DNA of 64,000 bases from an uncultured Candidatus Binatia bacterium (GTDB lineage Bacteria; Desulfobacterota; Binatia; Bin18), in NCBI GenBank assembly GCA_965200965.1, contig OZ241744.1, forward strand, positions 2,176,001 to 2,240,000, written 5' to 3'. A model generated the notes under the pieces. That model had not been told where the DNA came from and did not search any database. It saw only the letters and a program-made list of their open reading frames with translations. Each line of letters begins with the position of its first letter. The first letter of the stretch is position 1. Below are positions 1-45,654 of the stretch, one piece after another. The translations under genes were made by a program, and so were the position numbers.

Positions 1-245
1 TATTACCGGGGAGCCGCCCTGAGGAGACACCGTTTCTGAGACGCCTATCAGAATCGCTCGCGAGATTTATGGTGAAATGGCGCGTATCTTCGATATCTGT
101 GCTATCGCCGTCATCGGCTTGCATATTGAAGGCGGCAAATTGATTCACATTGCAGTCTGGAGCCTGGGCTTGGGCCGGCGGCCCCCACAGCAAGGCACAG
201 GCTGCCAGGGCGAGGAACAGGGCGGTTTTCACAGGTGACACTTTG

Positions 246-261
246 CCCCCCCCCCCCCCCC
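246..261. repeat. C16 homopolymer tract (G16 on minus strand)
   Basis: Counted directly: ctttg-C16-gcgcc, in an intergenic position. Confidence 0.9.
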
Positions 262-360
262 GCGCCAGTTTTGGCGTAGAACATATGTGCATCTTCTTCT
301 ATCAGTATCACGATCTTGATCCGCGTTCAATCAGCCTGTTGTCTCGGCTCCTCAACACGC

Positions 361-382
361 GCCGGCTCTTGCACCCTGCGGC
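361..382 (+). repeat. 22-bp direct repeat, left copy (gccggctcttgcaccctgcggc)
   Basis: Exact match to 2466-2487; the pair brackets the four-gene tandem array. Confidence 0.9.
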
Positions 383-403: not shown

Positions 404-892
404 TCAGGCTGCCCCTTTCGGCGGCGCAGTACGTTCAATCAGCGTCCGCAAGGCGAGCATGGTTTCTGCATGGCGTTCGGCGTGGGCGAGCGTGGCTTCT
501 GCATGGCGTTCGGCGTGGGTGCGCATGGCTTCCATGGTTTCGGCGTGGCGTTCGGCGTGGATGCGCATGGTTTCTGCATGGCGTTCGGCTTGAGTGCGCA
601 TGGCTTCCATGGTTTCGGCGTGGCGTTCGGCGTGGGTACGCGTGGCTTCTGCATGGCGTTCGGCTTGGGTGCGCATAGCTTCCATGGTTTCGGCGTGGCG
701 TTCGGCGTGCTGTTGTTCGCGGCGGTCGCCCATCCGTGCCATGTAGCGAATGCCGTAGCCGACGATCCCGGCCTGAATCAGCCCGACGGCCAGGGCAACC
801 CAGGCCTGCAGATGGGCGGCCGTGACCGCGGCCTCCTGCAAGGCGAGCGTGGCCTGCTCAAAGGTGGTGAGGGTGCCAGCGGTGTCAAACAT
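404..892 (-). CDS. Small membrane-anchored HAERHAE-repeat protein, copy 4 (162 aa, 7 repeat units)
   Basis: Constant 61-aa N-terminus with hydrophobic helix WVALAVGLIQAGIVGYGI; 3x14-aa + 4x11-aa repeats; C-terminal LRTLIERTAPPKGAA. Confidence 0.75.
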   Translation of the reverse strand: MFDTAGTLTTFEQATLALQEAAVTAAHLQAWVALAVGLIQAGIVGYGIRYMARMGDRREQQHAERHAETMEAMRTQAERHAEATRTHAERHAETMEAMRTQAERHAETMRIHAERHAETMEAMRTHAERHAEATLAHAERHAETMLALRTLIERTAPPKGAA

Positions 893-924
893 CAGGCGTC
901 GTCCAGGTGGTCTGCGTTCCTGTG

Positions 925-1479
925 TCAGGCTGCCCCTTTCGGCGGCGCGGTACGTTCAATCAGCGTCCGCAAGGCGAGCATGGCTTCTGCATGGCGTTCG
1001 GCGTGGGCGAGCGTGGCTTCTGCATGGCGTTCGGCTTGGGTGCGCATGGCTTCCATGGTTTCGGCGTGGCGTTCGGCGTGGGTACGCGTGGCTTCTGCAT
1101 GGCGTTCGGCTTGAGTGCGCATGGTTTCTGCATGGCGTTCGGCTTGAGTGCGCATGGCTTCCATGGTTTCGGCGTGGCGTTCGGCGTGGGTGCGCATGGT
1201 TTCTGCATGGCGTTCGGCGTGGGTGCGCGTGGCTTCTGCATGGCGTTCGGCTTGAGTGCGCATGGCTTCCATGGTTTCGGCGTGGCGTTCGGCGTGCTGT
1301 TGTTCGCGGCGGTCGCCCATCCGTGCCATGTAGCGAATGCCGTAGCCGACGATCCCGGCCTGAATCAGCCCGACGGCCAGGGCAACCCAGGCCTGCAGAT
1401 GGGCGGCCGTGACCGCGGCCTCCTGCAAGGCGAGCATGGCCTGCTCAAAGGTGGTGAGGGTGCCAGCGGTGTCAAACAT
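925..1479 (-). CDS. HAERHAE-repeat membrane protein, copy 3 (184 aa, 9 units)
   Basis: Same architecture; 3x14 + 6x11 aa; T15M variant in the N-terminus. Confidence 0.75.
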   Translation of the reverse strand: MFDTAGTLTTFEQAMLALQEAAVTAAHLQAWVALAVGLIQAGIVGYGIRYMARMGDRREQQHAERHAETMEAMRTQAERHAEATRTHAERHAETMRTHAERHAETMEAMRTQAERHAETMRTQAERHAEATRTHAERHAETMEAMRTQAERHAEATLAHAERHAEAMLALRTLIERTAPPKGAA

Positions 1480-1511
1480 CAGGCGTCGTCCAGGTGGTCT
1501 GCGTTCCTGTG

Positions 1512-1925
1512 TCAGGCTTCCCCTTTCGGCGGCGCAGTACGTTCAATCAGCGTCCGCAAGGCGAGCATGGCTTCTGCATGGCGTTCGGCGTGGGTGCGCG
1601 TGGCTTCTGCATGGCGTTCGGCTTGAGTGCGCATGGCTTCCATGGTTTCGGCATGGCGTTCGGCGTGGGCGAGCGTGGCTTCTGCATGGCGTTCGGCTTG
1701 AGTGCGCATGGCTTCCATGGTTTCGGCGTGGCGTTCGGCGTGCTGTTGTTCGCGGCGGTCGCCCATCCGTGCCATGTAGCGAATGCCGTAGCCGACGATC
1801 CCGGCCTGAATCAGCCCGACGGCCAGGGCAACCCAGGCCTGCAGATGGGCGGCCGTGACCGCGGCCTCTTGCAAGGCGAGCGTGGCCTGCTCAAAGGTGG
1901 TGAGGGTACCGGCGGTGTCAAACAT
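1512..1925 (-). CDS. HAERHAE-repeat membrane protein, copy 2 (137 aa, 5 units)
   Basis: Same architecture; 2x14 + 3x11 aa; ends KGEA. Confidence 0.75.
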   Translation of the reverse strand: MFDTAGTLTTFEQATLALQEAAVTAAHLQAWVALAVGLIQAGIVGYGIRYMARMGDRREQQHAERHAETMEAMRTQAERHAEATLAHAERHAETMEAMRTQAERHAEATRTHAERHAEAMLALRTLIERTAPPKGEA

Positions 1926-1957
1926 CAGGCGTCGTCCAGGTGGTCTGCGTTCCTGTG

Positions 1958-2404
1958 TCAGGCTGCCCCTTTCGGCGGCGCAGTACGTTCAATCAGCGTC
2001 CGCAAGGCGAGCATGGTTTCTGCATGGCGTTCGGCGTGGGCGAGCGTGGCTTCTGCATGGCGTTCGGCTTGGGTGCGCATGGCTTCCATGGTTTCGGCGT
2101 GGCGTTCGGCGTGGGTGCGCATGGTTTCTGCATGGCGTTCGGCTTGAGTGCGCGTGGCTTCTGCATGGCGTTCGGCTTGGGTGCGCATGGCTTCCATGGT
2201 TTCGGCGTGGCGTTCGGCGTGCTGTTGTTCGCGGCGGTCGCCCATCCGTGCCATGTAGCGAATGCCGTAGCCGACGATCCCGGCCTGAATCAGCCCGACG
2301 GCCAGGGCAACCCAGGCCTGCAGATGGGCGGCCGTGACCGCGGCCTCTTGCAAGGCGAGCGTGGCCTGCTCAAAGGTGGTGAGGGTGCCGGCAGTGTCAA
2401 ACAT
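1958..2404 (-). CDS. HAERHAE-repeat membrane protein, copy 1 (148 aa, 6 units)
   Basis: Same architecture; 2x14 + 4x11 aa; first in transcription order, unique upstream sequence. Confidence 0.75.
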   Translation of the reverse strand: MFDTAGTLTTFEQATLALQEAAVTAAHLQAWVALAVGLIQAGIVGYGIRYMARMGDRREQQHAERHAETMEAMRTQAERHAEATRTQAERHAETMRTHAERHAETMEAMRTQAERHAEATLAHAERHAETMLALRTLIERTAPPKGAA

Positions 2405-2465
2405 CAGGTACGTCCCGACCCGGCCTTTCTACCCTGTTTTATCTTGGTTATCCAGTAGCCAGTAG

Positions 2466-2487
2466 GCCGGCTCTTGCACCCTGCGGC
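2466..2487 (+). repeat. 22-bp direct repeat, right copy, overlapping a putative -35 box (TTGCAC) of the downstream operon
   Basis: Exact match to 361-382; TTGCAC followed 16 nt later by TATGCA upstream of the ATG at 2528. Confidence 0.85.
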
Positions 2488-2527: not shown

Positions 2528-3676
2528 ATGGCGGAGCAACGTTTTTCTCTGATTAGCGACGAAGCCCTGGCCGCCCTCCGGCAACTGATCAAGGTGCCGA
2601 TTGAGGACTCGCTGGAGCCGTGGTGCTATGAGGCCAGCCGCGACAACATCCGTCACTACGCCCACGGCATTGGCGACGATAACCCGCTGTGGTGTGACCC
2701 CGACTATGCCGCCACAACAGCCTACGGCACCCTGGCCGCTCCGCCGTCGTTTGTTTTTCCGCTGAACCGCATTCTGAGCGGCTATGTCGGCGGGCTGCCC
2801 GGCGTACACGCCATGTGGGCCGGGGCCGATATCAGCTGGCACAGCCCCATGCTGCGCGGCGACGAGTTCACCACCAAAGCCTGGCTCAAAGACCTGATTG
2901 AGCACGACACCCGTTTTGCCGGCCGGGCGATCCAGCAGGTCTACCATGTGGAGTACTACAATCAGACCGGGCGGCTGGTGGCCAGCGGCGACAGCTGGTG
3001 TTTTCGGACCGAGCGCGATACCGCCCGCGAGCGGGGCACCAAATACACCGCGCTCAAGCACCGCCAGCCTGTTCGCTATTCGCGTGACGCTCTTGCCCGA
3101 ATCTTTGCCCAGTACGCCGAGGAAAAAATCCGGGGGGCAACCCCACGCTATATTGAAGATGTGCAGGTCGGTGACAGCCTGCCGACTATGGTCAAAGGCC
3201 CGATGACAGTGACGGGCTTTATCTGCTACGCCCAGGGCTGGGGCGGGCTGTATATTCGGGCCAACCGTCTGGCCTGGAAGCAGCTCAAGAAACATCCCGG
3301 CCTGGGCATCCCGGACCGCTTCGGCATCCCTGATGTGCCCGAGCGGGTCCACTGGGACGGCGACCTGGCCGCCCTGGTCGGTACGCCCGACGCCTATGAC
3401 TACGGACCGGAGCGCACCTCGTGGATGACCCACCATCTGACCGACTGGATGGGCGACAGTGGCTTTCTGTGCCATATCCATGTGGAAATCCGGCGGCATA
3501 ATCCGGTCGGAGACACCCTGTACATCAACGGCGAGGTCAGGCGGATTTTTGCACAAGACCACGCCCACTACGTCGAGATTGCCCAGACTGCCACGAATCA
3601 GAATGACGAGTTGTCTGTCCATGCTACGGCCATCATCCGGCTCCCGTCACGGGTGCCGTCACTGCGAAAGGAGTAG
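2528..3676 (+). CDS. Double hot-dog (MaoC-like) acyl dehydratase/hydratase
   Basis: DNIRHYAHGIGDDNPLW..APPSF and a second hot-dog half (IEDVQVGDSLP, HWD..A, HHLTDWMG); start moved to MAEQRF with ggaagg RBS. Confidence 0.8.
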   Translation: MAEQRFSLISDEALAALRQLIKVPIEDSLEPWCYEASRDNIRHYAHGIGDDNPLWCDPDYAATTAYGTLAAPPSFVFPLNRILSGYVGGLPGVHAMWAGADISWHSPMLRGDEFTTKAWLKDLIEHDTRFAGRAIQQVYHVEYYNQTGRLVASGDSWCFRTERDTARERGTKYTALKHRQPVRYSRDALARIFAQYAEEKIRGATPRYIEDVQVGDSLPTMVKGPMTVTGFICYAQGWGGLYIRANRLAWKQLKKHPGLGIPDRFGIPDVPERVHWDGDLAALVGTPDAYDYGPERTSWMTHHLTDWMGDSGFLCHIHVEIRRHNPVGDTLYINGEVRRIFAQDHAHYVEIAQTATNQNDELSVHATAIIRLPSRVPSLRKE

Positions 3677-3679
3677 GCT

Positions 3680-5086
3680 ATGGCAACACTTTCATTACCC
3701 CCGACGGTCAGCGGTTCGGCCCCGGTTATTGGCCATGCGGTTGAGTTCCTCAGAGACCCGATTCCGCTCCTGGAACGCGGCTATCAGGAGCACGGCTCGG
3801 CGTTCTCGCTACGGCTCGGCACCAAGCCGGCGGTTGTCCTGCTCGGGCCCGACAACAACCGCTTCTTTTTTGCCGAAACCGATAAGCTGCTGTCGATCCG
3901 GGAAGGCTATCCGTTCTTCATCAAGATGTTCCACAAACGGTTTTACTTCTTTGCCGAGTTTGAAGAATATCTGGAGCAGCGGGCCATTGTCCTGCCCCGC
4001 TTCCAGGGCCAGCAGATGAACCAGTATGTCTCAACCATGGCCCAGGAGACCTGCGACCTGATTGAACGGCTGGGCGACAGCGGCTCGTTTGATCTGATTC
4101 CGACCCTCGGCCCGCTGGTGATGAATATCGCCGCCAATGCGTTTTTAGGCCCGGCCTTCCGGGGCGGGCTGGGCGGCGAGTTCTTTACCGACTTCCGGCA
4201 CTTCTCAGGCGGCATGGAGCCGGTCCTGCCGCTGTGGCTGCCCCTGCCCAAACTGCGCCGCAGCCAGAAGGCCAAGAAAAAGCTGCACCGGGTGCTGGGC
4301 GAGTTGATCGACACCCGTCGCCGGCAGCCGCCGGCTGAGCCCGATTTTCTCCAGACCCTGGTTGAGGCCCGCTTTTCTGATGGCCGGCCGGTTGATGATG
4401 AGCTGGTCATCAACCTGATCCTGCTGCTGGTATGGGCCGGCCACGAAACGACCGCCGGGCATATCAGCTGGGCGCTGATCGACCTGTTGCAGCATCCAGG
4501 TTATCTCCAGACCGTCCTTGACGACCAGGACGAGCACATCGGCGACCGCCAGGACCTGACAATGGCCGATGTGCGCCAGTTGTCGCGCATTGACTGGGCG
4601 GTCAAGGAGACCGAGCGGCTCCACCCGGTCGCCTATATTCTGATGCGGACCGCGGCCGAGGAGCTGGAAATCGGGGGGTTTCGGGTGCCGCAGGGCAGCC
4701 GGGTGTTTGCCGCCCCGTCAATCTCTCACCGGATGCCGGAGGTCTTTCCTGAGCCGGAGCGCTATGTCCCGGAGCGCTTCTCCCCGGCCCGGGACGAATC
4801 CCGCACCCCGCACAGTCTGATCGGCTTCGGTGGCGGGGTGCATCGCTGCGCCGGTGTCAACTTCGCCTATCTGGAGATGAAAGTCGCCCTGACCCTGCTG
4901 CTCCAGCACTATGAGTTCAACCTGCTGAACCCCGACCCCCAGCCGGTGGCCGGGGCGATGACCAAGTGGCCGGCCAGCCCGTGCCTGGTGAGCTATCAGC
5001 GGCGCTCCGGAGTGCCGAAGAGAGAGCGGCCGGTGGAGGAGACGCACCGCACGGCCAGCGCAGGACACTGCCCGGTCCACCACTGA
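3680..5086 (+). CDS. Cytochrome P450 (CYP51-like)
   Basis: I-helix AGHETT, ETER (ExxR), PERF, heme ligand FGGGVHRCAG; N-terminal PPTVSG..PVIGHAVEF. Confidence 0.92.
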   Translation: MATLSLPPTVSGSAPVIGHAVEFLRDPIPLLERGYQEHGSAFSLRLGTKPAVVLLGPDNNRFFFAETDKLLSIREGYPFFIKMFHKRFYFFAEFEEYLEQRAIVLPRFQGQQMNQYVSTMAQETCDLIERLGDSGSFDLIPTLGPLVMNIAANAFLGPAFRGGLGGEFFTDFRHFSGGMEPVLPLWLPLPKLRRSQKAKKKLHRVLGELIDTRRRQPPAEPDFLQTLVEARFSDGRPVDDELVINLILLLVWAGHETTAGHISWALIDLLQHPGYLQTVLDDQDEHIGDRQDLTMADVRQLSRIDWAVKETERLHPVAYILMRTAAEELEIGGFRVPQGSRVFAAPSISHRMPEVFPEPERYVPERFSPARDESRTPHSLIGFGGGVHRCAGVNFAYLEMKVALTLLLQHYEFNLLNPDPQPVAGAMTKWPASPCLVSYQRRSGVPKRERPVEETHRTASAGHCPVHH

Positions 5087-5237: not shown

Positions 5238-5957
5238 ATGACGAAACAGGAGAAAACAGCCAGCAACAGAGGAGAGGACTGGAATGTTGATATTACCGAA
5301 TTCTCCGTTGTTTTGCTTGCCACTTCCAACAATCCGTCAATTTTAAACCCGGATTTCCTGCAATATAACGACATCGTGGACGCGAGTCAGCAGATACAGG
5401 AGCCTCGTATTTCGACTCCAGCTTTTTCCCAAGTGATATTCCAGGACGGGCTCACCGTGACCGCCGACCCGGACCGCGTTATATTTGCGCAAACCAGAGG
5501 CAGATTGGCCACAGAAGACATTGTCTGCCCAGAAATAGCAAAACGCTATGTGAAGACAGTTCCGCACGTCACCTACCGCGCCGTCGGTATCAACCCGAAA
5601 GGCTTTAGACGCTCGGGGGACGGAGCACCTGACAGGGTAGCAAACGCTCTGACCGACAAAGGAGCATGGCTGTCATTCAAGGACACCATACCGGAAATTC
5701 AGCTCAAGGCGGTGTACCGTTATTCCGGACGGACAATTTTCCTGGACGTTATTGAAGCCAGACGAGAAGCTGACGGACGCCAAACTCCTGGAATACTGTT
5801 TCAGGCGAACATTCACCGTGATATCACAGAGACAAACCCGCAGAAGCGTACCGAGGGCTTGTTGTCTATTATCGACTCCTGGAAAGAAGACCTGTCCGAG
5901 TTTCATGTCCTGGTAAATAAGGTTCTACGAAAGGAAGCGGAATGCCCATTGAACTGA
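5238..5957 (+). CDS. Hypothetical protein, TIGR04255-like
   Basis: 239-aa ORF with SVVL..NPSILNPDFL, YRAVGIN and QANIHRD motifs recalled from that family; less GC-rich than flanks. Confidence 0.6.
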   Translation: MTKQEKTASNRGEDWNVDITEFSVVLLATSNNPSILNPDFLQYNDIVDASQQIQEPRISTPAFSQVIFQDGLTVTADPDRVIFAQTRGRLATEDIVCPEIAKRYVKTVPHVTYRAVGINPKGFRRSGDGAPDRVANALTDKGAWLSFKDTIPEIQLKAVYRYSGRTIFLDVIEARREADGRQTPGILFQANIHRDITETNPQKRTEGLLSIIDSWKEDLSEFHVLVNKVLRKEAECPLN

Positions 5958-6745
5958 ACTCTCAAACAGACAGGGCGAATATCACCACAACGGTTGAGAC
6001 TCCGCAGTATGATTGGGACCAATCTCTACTCTCCTGCGACCAGCCCACGACCCCAGACACAGCAATCATGCAGCGGCTTGGCTTGGCGTATGATCGAGGC
6101 CAACTTGGGTCTCGTGAGCCGGTTCCATGTGTTCCGAATTCCCCGACCCCTCTTTCCAGTTGGAGCGGGACAGAATATCAATCCGATAATACCCAGGCCG
6201 AAGAGCAATTAGCACAAAGGGCTTTGTCCATTCTTCCCCAGTTGATGCCCCAGGTAAACCGATTCCTCAGCGAGATCATCTCGGCCTGGACCACCCCCCA
6301 GTTGATGCCTCGGGTAGACCGACAGGCTTTCCCAGCAGCTCGGAACATCCTGGCTGAGTTTGTCGTGCGTGGTGCGAGCAGTTTCCCGGTCTCACTCGTC
6401 AACGCTTTGGGGGATCTCCAGGAAGTGACCGATGAGGCGTGTGAAGAAGGGCTCCCTCTACCGTCTGATGTGGCGCGACAAAACGCAGACCGCCTGTTGC
6501 GAAAAATGTATACAATCTCGCCCCGTCGTTTCGAGGTATATCCTACACAGGATGGCGAGATTGCCATTGACGCGCCGGATGGGCACGGGCGATCAGTGCT
6601 GTTGCTGTGCGATTCAGAAGGGGGGGCGCTGTGCCTCGTCAATATGAACGGGAACCATCGCCGCGCCCGGTATTCCACTACCGACACGCTTCCTGATGGC
6701 TTCGTGCGTGAAGCCTTGGCCGATCTGGAACGGCAGAGTGATTGA
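5942..6745 (+). CDS. Hypothetical protein, second gene of a coupled trio
   Basis: Overlaps the upstream gene by 16 nt; low-complexity N-half with internal PQLMPxVxR duplication; C-terminal EVYPTQDGEIAID domain. Confidence 0.6.
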   Translation: MPIELNSQTDRANITTTVETPQYDWDQSLLSCDQPTTPDTAIMQRLGLAYDRGQLGSREPVPCVPNSPTPLSSWSGTEYQSDNTQAEEQLAQRALSILPQLMPQVNRFLSEIISAWTTPQLMPRVDRQAFPAARNILAEFVVRGASSFPVSLVNALGDLQEVTDEACEEGLPLPSDVARQNADRLLRKMYTISPRRFEVYPTQDGEIAIDAPDGHGRSVLLLCDSEGGALCLVNMNGNHRRARYSTTDTLPDGFVREALADLERQSD

Positions 6746-7154
6746 ACCTGTGCATGTTCCCAAAGATATTGCACCCGAAGAGGAACTCGGACGTGGTGTG
6801 TTTTCGGAGAAACACAAGCACCGCGCTACACGCTCGCGTGTTCCGTTCCATGTGTTTCTGGAAAAACCGGGGAAGACCGAGATTTCTGTTGACAGGTTGA
6901 GGATCGCTCCACCGGGTGAAGCGCGTACAATTGCCGACAAAGTAGCTGCGGCGCGTAAGCGTGCTTTTCACGGATGGGCCTTCGTTATTGCTGAACGGGC
7001 TGTCAGCAATAAGCGGCGGGTGACTGCGAGTCCGCTTCCCGACAATCCCTATCACGCGGACATCATACTGCCGCAGCTTGCTGCCGATGATCGAGCAGAG
7101 CAGAAGCGACACGCTCAAGAATTGGCGGATGCTTCAGAGTGGCGTGGTCGTTGA
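6738..7154 (+). CDS. Small hypothetical protein, possible ADP-ribosyltransferase/RES-like toxin fold
   Basis: GTG start overlapping the previous stop; LGRGV, EISVDR, DNPYHADI motifs. Fold is inference. Confidence 0.55.
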   Translation: MIEPVHVPKDIAPEEELGRGVFSEKHKHRATRSRVPFHVFLEKPGKTEISVDRLRIAPPGEARTIADKVAAARKRAFHGWAFVIAERAVSNKRRVTASPLPDNPYHADIILPQLAADDRAEQKRHAQELADASEWRGR

Positions 7155-8354: not shown

Positions 8355-9545
8355 CTAATCCGGCAGTCCCAACACCCGCTTGGCAATCACATTGAGTTGA
8401 ATCTCGCTCGTCCCGCCCTCAATCGTGTTGCCCCGTGAACGCAGCCAGTCGCGAGTCAGGCCGAGCTCGCGCTCATCAAAGCCCGGCCCTTCCCAGCCCA
8501 GGGCCTGCGGACCGGCAATCGACAGCAGGAGTTCCTGGCGGCGCTGGTTGAGTTCAGTCCCGTAGATTTTGAACATTGAGCTTTCCGGACCTGGCGGGCG
8601 GCCGGCCTTGGCCGCGTCACGGCTGCGCTCGGAGGTCAGCCGAAACGCCATATTGTCCATCTCGAAGCGGGCGATACGGTCGCGCAGCGCCGTGTCGGCG
8701 AGCCGTTCGTGGTCAAAATCGAGATATTTTCTGGCCCAGTCGCGCAGCCCGCGGCGTTTGCCGCCCCCGCCACTAAAGGCGGTGGCGATCATCGACCGTT
8801 CGTGGTTCAACAGCGCCTTGGCCACGCTCCAGCCCTCGTTCACCCGGCTGACCACATTTGTGGCCGGCACCCTGACATCAGTCAGAAAAGTCTCGCAGAA
8901 CGGCGAGGAGCCGCTGATGAGTTTGATCGGGCGGGTTTCCACCCCGGGAGTTTCCATGTCCATCAGGATGAAGGTGATGCCCCGGTGTTTGGGTGCGTCC
9001 GGGTCGGTCCTGACCAGCAGAAACATCCAGTCGGCAAAGTTGGCGTAGGAGGTCCAGATTTTCTGGCCGTTGATGACGTAGAAGTCGCCGTCGAGCACGG
9101 CCCGGGTCTGGAGCGAGGCCAGATCGCTGCCCGAGCCGGGCTCTGAATAGCCCTGACACCAGCGGATTTCACCCCGCACAATTTTGGTCAGGTGTTCGTG
9201 TTTTTGTTCTTCGGTCCCGTACTCCAGCAGGGTCGGGCCGATCATGGTCAGGCCAAAGCCGATGAGCGGCACCGGCAGCCTGAGCGACGCCATTTCCTCG
9301 CGCAGAATCCTGGCCTCGGCCTTTGACAGTCCGCCGCCGCCGTACTGGGTCGGCCATTCGGGCGCAGTCCAGCCCTTCTCAGCCATGCGGTCCAGCCAGA
9401 CTTTGGCGTCTGGATTCCTGTAGTGCGCCTTGCGTCCGCCCCAGTTGCCCTCCAGCTCGCTTGACGCTGTGCCGATAAGCGACGCCGGGGCGTGGTCTGT
9501 AAGCCACTGACGGGTTTCGACACGAAAGGTTTCAAGATCGGCCAT
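8355..9545 (-). CDS. Acyl-CoA dehydrogenase
   Basis: WCQGYSEPGSGSDLASL, NGQKIWTS, TIEGGTSEIQ; start MADLETFR with gaggagga RBS. Confidence 0.92.
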   Translation of the reverse strand: MADLETFRVETRQWLTDHAPASLIGTASSELEGNWGGRKAHYRNPDAKVWLDRMAEKGWTAPEWPTQYGGGGLSKAEARILREEMASLRLPVPLIGFGLTMIGPTLLEYGTEEQKHEHLTKIVRGEIRWCQGYSEPGSGSDLASLQTRAVLDGDFYVINGQKIWTSYANFADWMFLLVRTDPDAPKHRGITFILMDMETPGVETRPIKLISGSSPFCETFLTDVRVPATNVVSRVNEGWSVAKALLNHERSMIATAFSGGGGKRRGLRDWARKYLDFDHERLADTALRDRIARFEMDNMAFRLTSERSRDAAKAGRPPGPESSMFKIYGTELNQRRQELLLSIAGPQALGWEGPGFDERELGLTRDWLRSRGNTIEGGTSEIQLNVIAKRVLGLPD

Positions 9546-9884
9546 TGCTCCAGTCCTCCTCAAAGCTGCATGGACGCGGCAAGCCTTGGAGCGCCAGGGC
9601 GTGCCCGTTGGGCGGTTTCTTCTCTGGCCGCGTCCGGGGCTGGTCAGCCGGGGCCGTGCTGTAGACGATAGTATCCGGCTCAGCCTTTGCTCGGGCGCTT
9701 GCTGATGGTGTCGGCTCCTGACTGGTCTGGGGGAATAGTTGTTCAAGCGTCAACTTCATCATCCCTGCTATGCGCCGAGTATAGACCTGGATGTCTTCTG
9801 TTCGTCGGGGTCAGAGCGGGCTGAGGCTGAGCCGGTCAAGGTCCCTGCAAGGACCAGGGCCATGATGATTATTCTCCCGGTCAT
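9532..9884 (-). pseudogene. Probable disrupted secreted protein
   Basis: ATG 9884 overlaps the upstream TGA (ATGA) with aaggaaggag RBS; signal-peptide-like MTGRIIIMALVLAGTLTGSASA; TAG after 38 aa; another frame is open 9762-9532. Confidence 0.4.
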
Positions 9885-10123
9885 GGGCCACTCCTTCCTT
9901 GCTCCCCGGTGCGTTCAATCAGCGCCCGCAAGGCTTCCCCCTGCTGGCGGAGGGCTTCCATTGTTTCGGTGTGCTGCGCATCCCGTGCGCCGGCGGCTTT
10001 GCACATCAGCCATAAGTCCCCGCCAATCAAGCCCGCTTGCAGGAACCCGATCCCGACTTGGGCCGCGGCAATCAGATTACCGGTTTCGCGCAAGGCGATC
10101 ATGGCGGTTTCGTATTCGGTCAT
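9881..10123 (-). CDS. Short paralogue of the HAERHAE-repeat membrane proteins (80 aa)
   Basis: IGFLQAGLIG, HTETMEAL and LRALIERT align with VGLIQAGIVG, HAETMEAM and LRTLIERT; ggagggg RBS. Confidence 0.7.
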   Translation of the reverse strand: MTEYETAMIALRETGNLIAAAQVGIGFLQAGLIGGDLWLMCKAAGARDAQHTETMEALRQQGEALRALIERTGEQGRSGP

Positions 10124-10202
10124 GCTGGCCCCTCCACACGGTCATTTTACGCCGGCCAAGCCAAGCGAAACAGGCAAACAGAGCTGAGCGGGCCGGGTCA
10201 AG

Positions 10203-10268
10203 CATTCGGGCGCGGTCCAGCCCTTCTCAGCCATGCGGTCCAGCCAGACTTTGGCGTCTGGATTCCTG
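10203..10268. repeat. 66-bp copy of acyl-CoA dehydrogenase internal segment 9355-9420
   Basis: 65/66 identical by direct comparison; encodes RNPDAKVWLDRMAEKGWTAPE. Confidence 0.9.
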
Positions 10269-39436: not shown

Positions 39437-40815
39437 GTCTGGTTGACCCCGCCGTCTCCAAGTCGTTATATTCTGCGACCGCATCGCTGACAGCGGTAGT
39501 TGGGTCTGGTTGACCCCGCCGTCTCCAAGTCGTTATATTCTGGCGACCGTGGGCGGGGGCTGCGGATGGCGTCTGGTTGACCCCGCCGTCTCCAAGTCGT
39601 TATATTCCTCTGCAAAGCCCCAACCGCGAGGGTCGCTGTCTGGTTGACCCCGCCGTCTCCAAGTCGTTATATTCCCGGCGGCGGGGGAGTACGACCCAAG
39701 CCCCGTCTGGTTGACCCCGCCGTCTCCAAGTCGTTATATTCACCGGCCTACGACTACGCCACCGCCCATGCGGTCTGGTTGACCCCGCCGTCTCCAAGTC
39801 GTTATATTCCCGGCCAGCCCGCGTCCAGCGGCAATGTCCGTCTGGTTGACCCCGCCGTCTCCAAGTCGTTATATTCGCCATTGAGCGCTGGGCCAACGGC
39901 CGAACGGTCTGGTTGACCCCGCCGTCTCCAAGTCGTTATATTCCTGGCCCTCGAGCTCCGTGCCGCGGCCGTGGTCTGGTTGACCCCGCCGTCTCCAAGT
40001 CGTTATATTCGTCAGCGAAAGTGTCACCGGAGATCATACGGTCTGGTTGACCCCGCCGTCTCCAAGTCGTTATATTCACCGGGGGGGGACGCCCCCCCAC
40101 CCAAAATGTCTGGTTGACCCCGCCGTCTCCAAGTCGTTATATTCCAGCGGCGTTCCGTGGACCATCAACTAATTGTCTGGTTGACCCCGCCGTCTCCAAG
40201 TCGTTATATTCTGCAATCGGCGCTGATGCGGAGTGTGGCCCGTCTGGTTGACCCCGCCGTCTCCAAGTCGTTATATTCTGCAATCGGCGCTGATGCGGAG
40301 TGTGGCCCGTCTGGTTGACCCCGCCGTCTCCAAGTCGTTATATTCCGTAGTAGTCTGCGTCGTTCACGATGTTCTGTCTGGTTGACCCCGCCGTCTCCAA
40401 GTCGTTATATTCCGTAGTAGTCTGCGTCGTTCACGATGTTCTGTCTGGTTGACCCCGCCGTCTCCAAGTCGTTATATTCCGTAGTAGTCTGCGTCGTTCA
40501 CGATGTTCTGTCTGGTTGACCCCGCCGTCTCCAAGTCGTTATATTCCGTAGTAGTCTGCGTCGTTCACGATGTTCTGTCTGGTTGACCCCGCCGTCTCCA
40601 AGTCGTTATATTCACCAAGATGCGTGTGGAGGCAGGAGCCGAAGTCTGGTTGACCCCGCCGTCTCCAAGTCGTTATATTCTCATTTTGGCATAGTCTCCG
40701 TCGGACTTCCTGTCTGGTTGACCCCGCCGTCTCCAAGTCGTTATATTCGATCGTCGGGGGCTTGGCGAGTACATGGATGTCTGGTTGACCCCGCCGTCTC
40801 CAAGTCGTTATATTC
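39437..40815 (+). CRISPR. CRISPR array: 21 identical 37-bp repeats (gtctggttgaccccgccgtctccaagtcgttatattc), 20 spacers of 30-31 bp, 16 unique
   Basis: Counted directly. + orientation inferred from tracrRNA complementarity, a TATATT -10-like box at the repeat 3' end, and a downstream hairpin. Confidence 0.98.
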
Positions 40816-40853
40816 AAGCCACACGGAAACCCCCGTGCGGCTTGAACTTTTCT
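40813..40853 (+). terminator. Hairpin between array and cas2 (possible terminator)
   Basis: ttcaagccacacgg-aaaccc-ccgtgcggcttgaa followed by cttttct. Confidence 0.6.
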
Positions 40854-40882
40854 GATCTGGAAGGCGTTGGCACAATGTTTTC

Positions 40883-41188
40883 CTAGAGAAGAACCAGTTG
40901 AACAGGGCGTGGGCTCTCCCTATGCTTACCCCCATTCCAGATGGTCATCATCCGCCCCATCTGCTTCTCGGTAATTTGCAAAACCGACACATGGCCCTTC
41001 TCTGGGCACAGAGCGACGAGCTTGGTAAGCTCCCGCTCGCTCCGGTCTGGCGTACCCACGAACTTGCGGTACACCGAGAACTGCATCATCTCATAGCCGC
41101 GTTTGCGGATGTCATTGTGAAAACGTGTGTATGCCTTGCGGCCCTCTGGGTTGGCTACAGGAAGGTCGTAGAAGACGAGCAGCCACAT
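40883..41188 (-). CDS. cas2: CRISPR-associated endonuclease Cas2
   Basis: MWLLVFYDLP, GYEMMQFSVY, ITEKQ; 101 aa from ATG 41188. Confidence 0.95.
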   Translation of the reverse strand: MWLLVFYDLPVANPEGRKAYTRFHNDIRKRGYEMMQFSVYRKFVGTPDRSERELTKLVALCPEKGHVSVLQITEKQMGRMMTIWNGGKHRESPRPVQLVLL

Positions 41189-41210
41189 GTAACGCGGCCT
41201 TCCCGAAACT

Positions 41211-42113
41211 TCAGGAGAGGAACGGGCAATCTGGATAGCGGACCCGTGTCTCGCGGCCGTCTTCAAGAAACTCTCGATATCCACGCACCACTTCCAGCAC
41301 TGCCCGCTTTACCGGCCCGTCATTCGCAAATGGCTCTAATATCGCTGACTTCACCGCTTTCTGGTCAATGCCGTCCGTGTCGCCTACTCCGAGTGTCACC
41401 GCCGCATCCACGGTCGGGCGGAAAGGCTCCATCAGGTCGGAAGCGAGCGCCCAGGCGTTGGTGCGAGAGGCATGACCAAATCCCAGCGACGGGTCACAGC
41501 CAAGCGCCACAAGGCCGCGCCCCACAGTTGCCAGCAGAACGGCATACCCCCAGTTCAGCAGGCCATTACGCGGGTCATCCTGGTCCGAACGCTTGAAATC
41601 ACTGAACAGACCACGCCAATAGATCGCAGCCGCCTGAGCCTCAACTGTCTCCTGTCCATCCAGCCCCACCTCGTCGGCCAAGCGTCGGACCCGCTGAGCA
41701 CCCCGCGCACCGACCTGTGCCAGGAGCGCCGCCTGTGCCATAATTTTCGCCTGCACGGTGCGCCGCCACAGCCGACGGGCAGCGGCCTGACCCCGCAAAG
41801 CGCGGACTTGGATGCGATGGACTTGTCCGGCGTTCCATCCCGCACTAACCGGCAGAGACAGCGAGACCGGAAGATGCTGCCGGCAAAAAATGACTGGGAT
41901 ACCGCGCTCACCGCAGGCCGCAAGCACCGCGGATGTCACCGTCGCCCGCTCGGTTTCCAGCACAACCGCCAGCACATCGCCGGACGGGAGCGTTACCCGG
42001 CCAGCCTTGTCGCGTCTTTCAACGACGAAGCTATTTGCCTCGAAGCGGATATGGCACCGGCTGGATACCTCCAGGAGCCTTTCCGCGCCTGTGAAGTCGT
42101 CTGCCAAGGACAT
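41211..42113 (-). CDS. cas1: Type II CRISPR-associated endonuclease Cas1
   Basis: EAQAAAIYW, NGLLNWGYAVL, LGFGH, LASDLMEPFRP. Confidence 0.95.
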   Translation of the reverse strand: MSLADDFTGAERLLEVSSRCHIRFEANSFVVERRDKAGRVTLPSGDVLAVVLETERATVTSAVLAACGERGIPVIFCRQHLPVSLSLPVSAGWNAGQVHRIQVRALRGQAAARRLWRRTVQAKIMAQAALLAQVGARGAQRVRRLADEVGLDGQETVEAQAAAIYWRGLFSDFKRSDQDDPRNGLLNWGYAVLLATVGRGLVALGCDPSLGFGHASRTNAWALASDLMEPFRPTVDAAVTLGVGDTDGIDQKAVKSAILEPFANDGPVKRAVLEVVRGYREFLEDGRETRVRYPDCPFLS

Positions 42114-45100
42114 CGCTGCGAAACTTGACTATATTGTTGTCAGGTGTAATCTGCTGTTTCTGTTTCTTTTCACGGGCGGCTTCGTTCACTGGGTAGGCGA
42201 TCAACCGCTTGTCCGCTCGCAGACCGGTTACGACAAAAGCCTTCCTTTCTTTGTTATTGATGACTATATCACCGGACCGGTACACCGGACGCTCTTTCGG
42301 GAAAATGTCGGCGCGTTTCTCGGCATTCATCCGGGCGAACTCGGCGACCGAAATGACCCGCCGGTCTTTGGCGTTTGGCGCGCCAACCACGGCGAACTTG
42401 CCTTCAGCGTTGATGAAAGCGCCCTTTTGACCGGACAGGGAGAGAACTGTTTGGAATCCCAACGGCCTTTTCAGGCCGCGATACCCGACCTTGATTTTCT
42501 TGTCTTGCTGCTCTTTGAGGCGCTTCCTTTGCAGCGTGTCAGTTGGAATCTCCTCGTATCGGGTCAGAATCTCTCTCCCTCCTGGAATGTTCTCGCCGTC
42601 CGGGGCCAATCTTTCCTTGCGGAGAAGTTTCGTCAACTCCTTTCTCGTTTCCCATGTCAGCGAGTAGATATTCCCTCCTCCAAACGCCCCGAGTCCGCTG
42701 CCCATCTTGTCGCCAGGGTTCCAGCGGTTGTCCGCACGATGGGCTGTGTGGATAGTCGGCAGCGTCTGTTCAAGCCGGACGAGGTTGTCCTGAAAGTCCC
42801 TGAACAACCCCTTACCGCCGTTGATCTGATCCAAAGCCGCCTGCAAAGCGCGGGGCTGGTACAGTTCCTCATAGGCGTGTGCATGGCCCAGCCGGTCGAA
42901 GGCAGCCTTGAGAACATGGCTGTCGAAATGGGCCACCAGAAACGCATCAACCGCGTGGTTGCGGAGATCGGAGCGGTCTTTATTGATGCCGAACATGCAG
43001 CGTAGCGCATAGACCGCCCACGCCTTGATCGGCTCGGTTTCTGCCCCAAGGTGGCGCAGATAACGCCGGGCGAGCTTGGTGGACCAGCCGATATTGGCGA
43101 TATCGCGCGCTGCTGGGCCGCCCTTGCGCGGCGTGTAGCCGGGACGACAACGACGGAACAGGGCGGCTTGGTCTTGGGGCCGGAATGGCTGCGCTCCCTT
43201 GCGGCTCGCTCCGCCTCCCTCCTCTGCGTCTGTACCCGGAATGACCGGCGGCCTTTCCAGAGCCTTGAGCACATCGGGGCGCGGTTCACCAAACTCAGCG
43301 AGCCGCTCAAGGTTCTGACGCGCCTGAGTCCGTCTCTCTTCAAGGCGTCCCCGCCTTGGGGAATTCCTCGTCAGTCCGCCAAGCACTTTTTCGATCCCTT
43401 TAATCTGACTGCACAGACCAAAGGTTGCAAACGCTACGAGAGCGGGCTGGAAGCCGGGGTCGTGGCTGAAGGCTTCCCACGGTAGGCACCGGCCTTTCTG
43501 TTGATTGAACCGCGACACGAAAATGTTATTTTCGCGGAAGTCGCCAAACGCGGCCGGCTCAACATGGTCAAGCTGGTATTCGCTGCCATCCACCAGCGCG
43601 CTTGGCTGGATATCGCTCCCGTCGTAGTCCCGCCAGCCTTGACGGACCGCGGCTTTCCAGCAGTCTACCAAGCGGTCAAGCGTAGGACCGGCCGGCATCT
43701 TTTCACCGAGAACCTTCTCGATCCCAGCTTTAATGTCCTTGCGCAACTTCTCGCGGGCACGGTTCGTCTTATTATAGTCCGCAGCTTGCGCCTCTGAGAA
43801 GGTTGAGCGGGCCATCTCGATAGCGCACCGCGTCGGCAGAATACCGCCCATCATCTCGATAATGGCGTTCACCACGGCCCGCAGTCGGTTCATAACCACA
43901 TGCACATCAGGGTTGGCCGCCCGCCCATACTGCTGTTCCTCTGCCACCGTTCGCTCCTCGGGCGCGAACCCCGTCGCCGGGACAATCTCGTCCGGCATGA
44001 CTTGGCCGTAATAGGGAAGCCGCTCATAGATCTCGAGTACTGGTTTCCGCGCTCCCCGTTCCCGGAGTTTGCGGAGATGTTCATCGTGGTCCAGCCCTTG
44101 CGCGTAGCAGTCGCCGAGCAGACGGGCAGCTTTGACAGATATTGATGAAAACCTGTCTTCAAGTTTCTTTGCGACCTTTGCCCGGTCCACCTTTTCCAGC
44201 GCGTCGGGGCCGAACTCTGCCGCGGCCTTGCGCTCCAGGGCTTCGGTGTCGGACTTTTTCCAGGGCGGCAACTTCCCGTCGCTGGCCGAAGGCCAGTGTC
44301 GGCGCAGGAACCGCATTGTCCAGTCATCGCGTTGCTCAATGGGCAGACTGCTCCACGCCTCTCCCAAGGCTCCACCAAGCGCGGCATCGGTTTTGGCTCC
44401 TACCAGTCGCCGCGTCCCAGAGCGGTCGCCCCGGTCGAGTTTCAATTCAATCTCAAGCTCCCTGGAAAGTTCGTTGAGGCTGACCGCCTCACTTGCCGAG
44501 AGAATATCGATCACCCTGTTGAATCTCGCCCTATCAAGGGGCTTTCCACCCTGGTCGCGCAGGGTGTCCGCCTGCTCCAGGCTGCGGAACCACTGGAAGC
44601 TCGGCAGGGCGGCAACACAACGGTACTCGTGGGGGAAATAGCGGCATCGGCCCGGCGTTTTGGTCTGGAGCGGTCGCCTGAACTCCGCGGCCTCTTCAAT
44701 ACGCGCCCAGGCATCGTCATCAATCTCGATTCCCGATGCCTTCCTCAGCATCTCGCACTCCTCATGGATCAGGGAGAAGGTCGGGGTCAGGAACTTGAAC
44801 GCTTCATAGCTCGGCGCGTTGCCGCCGTCCTTCGGCTTCTTCTTCCTGTTCTCCTTCTGCCACGCGAGAGAGCAGTGACGCTTGCGAAACGGAACCTTGT
44901 CCCGTCTGGCATCGCTAGCGCAACGCTCCAGAAACTCGCCGATTGTTCGACAGTCATACTGCTTGATCGCTTGGCAGTAGTCGTCCTCGGTCCGCGTAGC
45001 GAAGCCTGATCCTTCGTCCGGTCCGGCGCGGCCAATGGGTTTCAAGTAGCCGCGACGTTTCAAGGTATTGTATAAAGCCCGCCCTAGGTCGTGGGGATGG

Positions 45101-45654
45101 ACGGAGAACGAGGGGTCAAGCAGCTTGGCCCGAAGCACGTCCGCCTTGATATTGACTTGTCCCTTGGGATATTCGCCCTCTTTGGGCAGCAGCCCGGCAT
45201 TTTGCAGGGCCTTCTTGACGTACAGGCGTCGCCGTTGACGGGCGTCTAACGTGCGGCGCGCTGCCCTGGCCTCCGCGCGAATTTTCGAGAGCGACTTGTC
45301 CGCCTTCTCATGTCGTTCTCGGGCGTCGAACTTGTGCGTACCCAGCGGCACAAAGCCGGGGAGGTCGGGAAGCTGTGTGCGGGTGGCCGACTTCGGCAAC
45401 GTGCGGTTATGGTCGGCAATATCCTCCGCGGTCAGAAAATGCAGGCGCTTGCCATCCTCGAAAAGGATGCACCAGCCGATATTGCCGTTGCCGATGTCAA
45501 AGCCAATGCGGTAGCCGGTAAACGTTCCGAGATTGGCTTTTCTCGTTGAACGCCGCCGCGGACCGGCCGCGGTGTCTACTTCCTCTTGAAACGCCGCGTC
45601 CTCATAATCTTCGGACCGACGATCTATGCGGGCAAATGGCTTCATATCCTCCAT
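42031..45654 (-). CDS. cas9: Type II-C Cas9 (about 1207 aa), divergent
   Basis: RuvC-I GFDIGNGNIGW, Arg-rich bridge helix, KRRGY, RuvC-II IEMAR, HNH LDHVEP..N..NQQKG, RuvC-III RNHAVDA; no csn2 or cas4; start chosen by ggag RBS. Confidence 0.93.
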   Translation of the reverse strand: MEDMKPFARIDRRSEDYEDAAFQEEVDTAAGPRRRSTRKANLGTFTGYRIGFDIGNGNIGWCILFEDGKRLHFLTAEDIADHNRTLPKSATRTQLPDLPGFVPLGTHKFDARERHEKADKSLSKIRAEARAARRTLDARQRRRLYVKKALQNAGLLPKEGEYPKGQVNIKADVLRAKLLDPSFSVHPHDLGRALYNTLKRRGYLKPIGRAGPDEGSGFATRTEDDYCQAIKQYDCRTIGEFLERCASDARRDKVPFRKRHCSLAWQKENRKKKPKDGGNAPSYEAFKFLTPTFSLIHEECEMLRKASGIEIDDDAWARIEEAAEFRRPLQTKTPGRCRYFPHEYRCVAALPSFQWFRSLEQADTLRDQGGKPLDRARFNRVIDILSASEAVSLNELSRELEIELKLDRGDRSGTRRLVGAKTDAALGGALGEAWSSLPIEQRDDWTMRFLRRHWPSASDGKLPPWKKSDTEALERKAAAEFGPDALEKVDRAKVAKKLEDRFSSISVKAARLLGDCYAQGLDHDEHLRKLRERGARKPVLEIYERLPYYGQVMPDEIVPATGFAPEERTVAEEQQYGRAANPDVHVVMNRLRAVVNAIIEMMGGILPTRCAIEMARSTFSEAQAADYNKTNRAREKLRKDIKAGIEKVLGEKMPAGPTLDRLVDCWKAAVRQGWRDYDGSDIQPSALVDGSEYQLDHVEPAAFGDFRENNIFVSRFNQQKGRCLPWEAFSHDPGFQPALVAFATFGLCSQIKGIEKVLGGLTRNSPRRGRLEERRTQARQNLERLAEFGEPRPDVLKALERPPVIPGTDAEEGGGASRKGAQPFRPQDQAALFRRCRPGYTPRKGGPAARDIANIGWSTKLARRYLRHLGAETEPIKAWAVYALRCMFGINKDRSDLRNHAVDAFLVAHFDSHVLKAAFDRLGHAHAYEELYQPRALQAALDQINGGKGLFRDFQDNLVRLEQTLPTIHTAHRADNRWNPGDKMGSGLGAFGGGNIYSLTWETRKELTKLLRKERLAPDGENIPGGREILTRYEEIPTDTLQRKRLKEQQDKKIKVGYRGLKRPLGFQTVLSLSGQKGAFINAEGKFAVVGAPNAKDRRVISVAEFARMNAEKRADIFPKERPVYRSGDIVINNKERKAFVVTGLRADKRLIAYPVNEAAREKKQKQQITPDNNIVKFRSDVLGRRLHRRGKAPGGIQPVPYPLRGK

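Follow-up and report, generated by a model that had tools for sequence, protein, structure and literature searches.

Four open reading frames lie head to tail on the minus strand near the start of the window, the 64,000-nucleotide stretch of DNA from an uncultured Candidatus Binatia bacterium that was analysed here. In transcription order these are gene 1 (1958..2404; 148 aa, six modules of 14-11-11-14-11-11 residues), gene 2 (1512..1925; 137 aa, five modules of 14-11-14-11-11), gene 3 (925..1479; 184 aa, nine modules) and gene 4 (404..892; 162 aa, seven modules). All four frames were found to parse fully into a 61-aa N-terminus, a run of 11- or 14-aa modules and a 15-aa tail, which matches exactly the four minus-strand genes with 6, 5, 9 and 7 in-frame modules of the original prediction. 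The near-invariant 61-aa N-terminus, the 15-aa C-terminus and the 32-bp spacing claimed there were also borne out; the three spacers (1926..1957, 1480..1511 and 893..924, all minus strand) are identical 32-mers, each comprising the 3′ tail of one gene and about 10 bp upstream of the next start. Across the constant parts of the four genes seven sites vary, five synonymously and two non-synonymously, and an additional module variant, TMRI, was present in the array. No promoter-like site was found in the spacer at 1926..1957, and we therefore infer that the four genes are carried on one transcript. Upstream of gene 1 lies the leader of the inserted cassette (2405..2465, minus strand), a unique 61-bp sequence in which no sigma-70 consensus was found, and no terminator was found for the array.

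The cassette is enclosed by a 22-nt direct repeat of the target, whose upstream copy (2466..2487) and downstream copy (361..382) are 100% identical; the upstream copy starts in the loop of a hairpin with an 8-bp stem at 2476-2495. The conserved flank is a MaoC/FAS1-type dehydratase gene (2528..3676, plus strand). In all six congeners fetched, this MaoC-type gene directly abuts the upstream CoA-transferase-like gene, and both the array and a 719-codon gene are absent; in the congener G007, where the site is empty, the target sequence occurs once only. The array is an insertion with a 22-bp target duplication at a site that is empty in congeners. The 719-codon open frame, whose 5′ end occupies 1..298 (minus strand) and which continues beyond the window, encodes a signal-peptide-like protein with no Pfam or NCBIfam match over the 458 aa tested, and represents a second insertion where the array lies, one that brought a further copy of the target region. 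As the site is empty in the congeners and the target is single in G007, two insertions were stacked at one site, and each duplicated target sequence. An insertion sequence or MITE was rejected, as the cassette holds no transposase and no inverted repeat was seen at its ends among the 25 longest listed; phage genes were not found around the array.

A fifth, single-copy paralogue (9881..10123, minus strand, 80 aa) is present in the same window between what we take to be luciferase-like and acyl-CoA dehydrogenase-like genes, and is bracketed by a 74-nt duplicate at 10195..10268 and its 95% match at 9347-9420. In this genome bracketing direct repeats were observed at 5 of 14 family loci against 19 of 250 random sites (p about 0.005), and elsewhere at 17 of 78 family loci. 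That such repeats are specific to the rod family is partly supported; many other insertions in the genome share them. Twenty CRISPR spacers from the window matched neither the family loci nor the plasmid-like contigs fetched.

Variation and origin of the array

The array is real and not an artefact of assembly. An artefact, or a non-coding repeat, is a very improbable reading that is already largely refuted, even though the contig pieces of eight public short-read runs break inside the array, none spanning it whole, and the plus strand opposite also carries long open frames. It is opposed by the private SNPs that separate the copies, as had been claimed, and by a separate long assembly of 3.60 Mb that carries its own distinct alleles of 148, 137 and 162 aa. 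Gene-to-gene junctions were among the pieces listed for seven of the eight independent runs examined (of 17 listed), and conservation at the codon level together with hundreds of family members argues in the same direction. The gene order and the count of four are given as assembled, spanning pieces being absent from the runs examined.

It had further been proposed that the array is a two-level contingency locus. In such a reading, rods of different length would act as rulers or decoys and be reshuffled at high frequency into a selectable spectrum within the population. Some length variation between strains does exist and fits this proposal: the four genes have four different lengths, the allele P0002 resembles a recombinant of genes 1 and 2, and one paralogous pair has length alleles from 110 to 143 aa across assemblies. 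Spacer variants are present among the public-run contigs, and the ratio of the contig depth of the N-terminal piece to that of the flank differs between runs, with values from about 1.2 to over 4; depth is not equal to copy number. The idea of a contingency programme is weakened, however, and we regard it as distinctly unlikely. All three comparable genes of the second assembly keep their length and 14/11 pattern despite 4-7 residue substitutions each, every indel is in frame, which leaves no means of switching a gene on or off, neither a recombinase nor an invertase is encoded nearby, and the rod is predicted to be cytoplasmic and so would not be exposed at the surface. Moreover, tandem amplification peculiar to the rod family was rejected, because unrelated genes of the genome show the same two-level amplification, both in tandem and intragenically; these include two arrays of ~33 kb and a CCDC90-like tandem triplet of 116, 156 and 149 aa with differing heptad counts.

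The architecture and origin of the array as described are highly probable. In our preferred account, a mobile accessory gene would insert at a new site and then be amplified locally in tandem, with unequal recombination between short homologies as the source of gene copies, and slippage or gene conversion as the source of modules. Selection would remove out-of-phase changes and tolerate most in-phase lengths, so that the array would raise dosage from one transcript rather than embody a programme. The product would span the inner membrane a single time, and its cytoplasmic part would form a parallel coiled coil, likely of three chains.

The encoded rod protein

The protein is under purifying selection, with a dN/dS of about 0.15. 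In comparison with the G007 copies, values of 0.13-0.18 were obtained in 16 of 16 pairs (dN 0.07-0.09, dS 0.47-0.54), and the differences at codon positions 1, 2 and 3 numbered 7, 3 and 19; the codon-level conservation that had been named as a check on the array was thus found. The antisense mirror frame also has a low dN/dS (0.10/0.50), as expected because third positions coincide. Family-wide, with 93 of 116 genes parsed, the 212 pairs whose dS was below 0.6 gave a median dN/dS of 0.24-0.30, and more distant pairs gave 0.53.

One hydrophobic segment, at residues 30-48, was observed, in keeping with the single transmembrane helix that had been claimed. Membrane topology can be read from the placement of K and R by the positive-inside rule; there are no such residues before the segment and four within the 15 residues after it, which by this rule suggests an N-out/C-in topology with the rod in the cytoplasm. 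For the gene 2 protein, from which the structure and trimer predictions were made, AlphaFold2 returned one helix over residues 10-130 with a mean pLDDT of 92.6. A model with three copies, the only number modelled, scored 0.59 against 0.00 for the best control; in the calibration of this score, which was made on dimers, 20 of 30 solved homodimers and 1 of 23 monomers attained the mark. High scores come easily to coiled coils. The trimer runs agreed in at least 84% of contacts with a partner pLDDT of at least 79, the chains being in register and parallel, and the predicted interface included the conserved Q40, G47, M51, R58, L126 and T130 as well as all eight histidines of the rod. The likely predicted form is a parallel coiled coil of three chains whose core holds His/Met layers, and the proposed check on topology and oligomers came out in favour of a single-pass membrane coiled coil.

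Throughout the family, rods of different length stay in helical phase, which shows selection to keep the helix unbroken. The distances from the anchor to the tail motif, which take 26 distinct lengths, cluster at a period of 3.61 (R 0.60), which was equalled by 0 of 5000 random sets, and the clustering was repeated in a second set with R 0.64 (90 of 140 representatives parsed, 50 unparsed). The suggestion that periods of 11 and 14 residues fit a hendecad/heptad coiled coil was thereby upheld. The rods of the four array proteins are predicted to be about 12-19 nm long. One family member, P0135, has an additional C-terminal part.

A response of the rods to metal or pH is plausible given the predicted His/Met core, and the main rival to a defence role (see below) is that the protein is a membrane-tethered metal buffer or a metal- or pH-gated rod. 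His3/Met3 layers in the trimer core would bind Cu, Zn, Ni or Ag, and added modules or gene copies would scale the capacity of what resembles the 'molecular sponge' of SilE/PcoE, but cytoplasmic and anchored in the membrane. Of 90 parsed representatives, each from another 50% cluster, 87 have the motif H-x-x-x-M, the family proteins of the window have 9-15 His and 8-13 Met each, and all the rod histidines fall in the predicted interface; in addition, the available part of a study on SilE describes Ag+ binding through His and Met spaced i+3/i+4 on one helix face (PMC5008109). We consider metal buffering possible but doubtful, since no metal transport or resistance family was found in 60 scanned neighbours and none was recognised by eye in the other 90, while 17 of the 90 members have a single His and two have none. 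Furthermore, His-free heptads expand too, distant His-less relatives exist in the genome, and SilE is periplasmic with different motifs.

The family and its genomic surroundings

The genome, one contig of 3.62 Mb, contains 21 family copies at nine loci, with arrays of 8, 4, 2 and 2 copies, and about five further weak, His-poor relatives. The 8-copy array has a counterpart of 3-4 copies at the same site in G007, which carries four close paralogues elsewhere, interspersed with what are presumably fragments of TPR, ATPase and restriction-modification-like genes. The gene has been gained and lost between congeners; it was present in 7 of 7 congeners, in 3 of 3 genomes from another genus and in the single genome of a third, and was not found in 29 other genomes searched. 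Phylum-wide, the family was found in 2 of 251 genomes, this one included, and it was also detected in 5 of 51 relatives of an alphaproteobacterial carrier.

A profile search yielded 631 clusters at 50% identity, and for 245 of these the E value was 1e-10 or better. Among 78 named loci with relatives, 64 are labelled Ca. Binatia or Binatota, which makes this the likely class of the host, and the other 14 belong to Alphaproteobacteria (5), Nitrospinota (3), Thermodesulfobacteriota (2) and, for the rest, Gammaproteobacteria, Terriglobia or unclassified. The scan behind these figures was built on a single motif pattern and retained the best 80 of 108, so that it is biased toward kin of the query. 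The named loci and the genomes given G handles are overlapping collections and so are not independent. A set of 7997 candidates with lengths of 276-2000 aa showed no longer or fused form, although this is weak evidence; a scan of JGI metagenomes confirmed 0 of 599 pattern matches, and IMG/VR, GenBank phages and PLSDB plasmids yielded no family copy. Part of the stretch is contained in five runs from two studies that carry the label sponge metagenome, and all five were confirmed; no RNA run was found to contain it. The host is likely a Ca. Binatia sponge symbiont, and record names suggest that the non-Binatia carriers are sponge-derived as well. According to the accessible portion of one report, Binatia MAGs have been recovered from sponges, and the symbionts of sponges show an enrichment of toxin-antitoxin, restriction-modification and eukaryote-like genes (PMC9531527).

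At 15 of the 78 loci a stretch of 1.5 kb held at least two copies, one of the 15 being an artefact of overlapping frames. Tandem arrays also occur in Alphaproteobacteria and Nitrospinota, and two alphaproteobacterial genomes have several arrays each. In a tree of 110 rows and 63 columns with unsettled bootstrap, array members group by locus as local clades, which lends rough support to the view that arrays arose repeatedly; the tree cannot prove transfer between phyla. The gene could also be a near-neutral or selfish passenger, that is, a small expressed membrane gene under weak selection, amplified only because the lineage duplicates tandem DNA readily, so that the array would have no special role. 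The many other tandem arrays and intragenic repeat expansions of the genome, with the CCDC90-like triplet among them, would agree with this, as would the gain and loss between congeners and the conservative substitutions between modules. We nevertheless think a passenger unlikely in view of the low dN/dS, the helical phase and H-x-x-x-M conserved over hundreds of clusters, the recurrence of independent arrays in several phyla and the G007 counterpart of the 8-copy array.

Several observations bear on the mobility of the gene. Near-identical genes were found at unrelated sites in different genomes, with homology that stops within tens of bases of the open reading frame. The sequence TTGAC stands exactly 35 nt before the ATG at 13 of 78 starts examined, all in one clade, which suggests that the gene of this clade is a leaderless, self-promoted unit. 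Two small plasmid-like contigs, each a dimer of a ~8-kb unit, have copies immediately downstream of TrfA and Replicase genes; one of these contigs also encodes MobA/MobL and the other an MmeI-type enzyme. At 60 of 75 loci the upstream gene is co-oriented.

Of the 150 genes next to family copies, at least 17 encode toxin-antitoxin, restriction-modification, transposase or Rep functions, compared with 2 of 143 control genes (Fisher p about 0.0005), a count in which 60 of the 150 were scanned, picked by eye, the remaining 90 were scored negative, kin are not independent and the controls come from this genome alone. About 130 of the 150 neighbours are not defence genes. From this neighbourhood, and by analogy with inner-membrane proteins of the moron type, a role in defence or exclusion at the membrane against incoming phage or plasmid DNA may tentatively be proposed as the most likely of the roles considered. 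It is the weakest step of our best explanation, and the statement as a whole, that a mobile accessory membrane-rod gene inserted here, was amplified locally into the array and guards against phage or plasmid DNA, is accordingly one to which we would not give even chances. Accessory genes of any kind may gather in these patches. The prediction places the variable part in the cytoplasm, and the membrane segment is homogenised, whereas an arms race at the membrane would predict otherwise. No PADLOC, PHROG or NCBIfam match passes, and the searches of IMG/VR, GenBank phages and PLSDB found no copy.

Read jointly, the observations could describe a cross-phylum family of sponge symbionts, with hundreds of clusters and up to about 20-30 copies per genome, built as a mobile unit of promoter plus gene whose products form His3/Met3 trimer rods. 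This unit would move on small plasmids and into chromosomes with target duplications, and two dials set by recombination, gene number and rod length, would fix one quantity, either how much metal the rods can bind or how strongly they keep DNA from entering. Taken as a whole, this claim is rather doubtful. If it is true, it would add a new shared adaptation to sponge life beside eukaryote-like proteins and defence systems, whose enrichment there is known. Studies of enrichment in sponge symbionts count annotated domains, which an unannotated rod family would escape. With 10-30 copies per genome in unrelated symbiont lineages, while not found in most sampled relatives, the family could mark the sponge-symbiont lifestyle, and its members are small enough for direct expression and test. 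A natural coiled coil with a His/Met core in a ready length series would likewise be useful for studying assembly that depends on metal or pH, and if DNA entry is blocked, the rods would represent a new defence family missed by PADLOC.

Comparison with named systems

No match above cut-offs was obtained in Pfam, NCBIfam, PHROG, PADLOC, PDB sequence or Foldseek searches, and the Atlas gave leads under 0.9 only; the absence of a recognised named family, as first noted, was therefore confirmed. No description of the rod family was found in the literature, subscription journals lying outside the coverage. It is an undescribed family built on a known architectural plan, namely an anchor and a variable repeat stalk in many paralogues.

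A close likeness is with the CCDC90-like/DUF1640 proteins (PF07798), prokaryotic relatives of MCUR1/CCDC90B, which are small single-anchor coiled coils with variable repeat stalks. Prokaryotic CCDC90-like proteins follow a trimeric head-neck-stalk-anchor plan, with an N-terminal head and a C-terminal membrane anchor. In this genome they are multi-copy, form the tandem triplet and are sometimes direct neighbours of rod genes, and a parallel coiled-coil stalk of variable length of their type is predicted for the rod family too. The rod family, however, has the opposite polarity, with an N-terminal anchor and a distal conserved L-I-E-R-T tip, and it has no head domain (transmembrane segment 30-48, single helix) and a His/Met core. 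The accessible part of a preprint on MCUR1-CCDC90B treats the mitochondrial scaffold only (10.1101/2025.10.14.682030). Membership in PF07798 was rejected, as there was no Pfam match and the probability in a profile comparison was 0.2%.

The Bdr proteins of Borrelia have a C-terminal membrane anchor. As described in the portion available of one paper, these KID-repeat proteins (PFam80) are, similarly to the rods, paralogous, plasmid-associated inner-membrane proteins with short repeats (PMC4370689). The rod family lacks KID/KIE repeats, as defined in the same portion of that paper, and has no sequence match to Bdr, and its polarity is the reverse, with the anchor at the N-terminus; moreover, Bdr is described as unique to Borrelia, whereas the rods occur in several phyla.

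SilE and PcoE share with the rods repeated helical His/Met motifs on one helix face, as far as the available text of PMC5008109 goes. In that text SilE is periplasmic, with a signal peptide and the motifs MxxHxxxxxHxxM / HxxMxxxHxxM, in contrast to the HxxxM, transmembrane anchor and predicted cytoplasmic location of the rods. SilE is also disordered without metal and lies in sil/pco clusters. Membership in SilE/PcoE was rejected, since these motifs were not found and no sil/pco metal-resistance cluster was seen at rod loci.

The gp15 protein of phage HK97, which acts in superinfection exclusion, is presented in the part of the source available as a small inner-membrane moron unit with its own promoter (PMC3594210), and the rod gene resembles such units in being inserted between unrelated genes and, in one clade, in having its own TTGAC box. 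Unlike morons, the rod family was not found in phages and shows no homology to them; no terminator was found, and it has a long repeat rod and tandem amplification. A phage or prophage location of rod genes was rejected on PHROG, IMG/VR, GenBank phages and the surroundings of the array. The candidate holin BhlA/Rz-like spanin was likewise rejected, the Atlas lead being 0.83 only, with PF10960 on 28% of the cluster and no lysis genes nearby. Four of 61 members matched an Rz-like PHROG, with a best E of 9e-5.

Predicted variable-length membrane rods

The rod family, the His-rich, single-anchor membrane coiled-coil proteins of the window array, also formed an array of eight copies at G000:C1:2,753,015-2,756,186 (G000:C1 being the single contig of the genome that carries the window), and the His/Met content of these proteins was even higher than that of the window array. 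At the corresponding site, three to four copies were present in the congener G007 and zero copies in the genome G004. The family was also carried by two small plasmid-like contigs, L065 (with TrfA and MobA/MobL) and L073 (with a Replicase and an MmeI-type enzyme), both of which were dimers of a unit of ~8 kb, and each had one rod-family gene located just downstream of the Rep gene.

Further genes of similar build were observed in the same genome. At G000:C1:2,995,044-2,996,537, a triplet resembling CCDC90-like proteins (116, 156 and 149 aa) varied in heptad count, and about a dozen such C-anchored genes were scattered across the genome. A third family of at least six genes combined an N-terminal anchor with a conserved C-terminal motif, for which no Pfam name was obtained. 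Together with the rod family, these genes give the impression of a guild of membrane rods that differ in length.

Tandem amplifications and insertions elsewhere in the genome

Two tandem arrays of ~33 kb (G000:C1:271,784-305,588 and G000:C1:1,132,569-1,165,221) each comprised about a dozen copies of near-identical membrane proteins of ~800 aa, and a protein of 172-216 aa was encoded in a four-copy tandem array with identity up to 97% (G000:C1:2,391,267-2,393,532). An insertion signature also recurred, in which foreign-looking genes were bracketed by direct repeats (150-400 bp) of the target gene's end; it was seen at G000:C1:451,261-454,233, 2,353,085-2,355,160, 2,945,568-2,947,891 and 2,970,058-2,971,754, and an integrase was not obvious at any of the four.

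Genes flanking the window array and the CRISPR-Cas locus

The insertion site of the window array was shared by a 719-codon signal-peptide-like gene (window 1-298, extending upstream of the window). Neither Pfam nor NCBIfam gave a match for the 458 aa searched; the final part of the product was similar to repeated secreted proteins encoded at other positions of this genome. The MaoC-type gene was followed downstream by a Cytochrome P450 gene (window 3680-5086), whose N-terminus looks CYP51-like. Sterol genes are reported to be enriched in sponge symbionts (PMC9531527). Three lower-GC genes without a Pfam match were inserted after the P450 gene (window 5238-7154); part of this set also occurred in G007, and none of it in the other congeners.

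At window 39437-45654, cas2 and the gene for a Cas9 of 1207 aa accompanied a CRISPR array containing 21 repeats; this Cas9 passed NCBIfam TIGR01865 and had no Pfam match at 1e-4. One spacer agreed at 27 of 29 bases with a spacer-like stretch at G000:C1:2,822,847-2,822,875, the surroundings of which look like a second CRISPR array.
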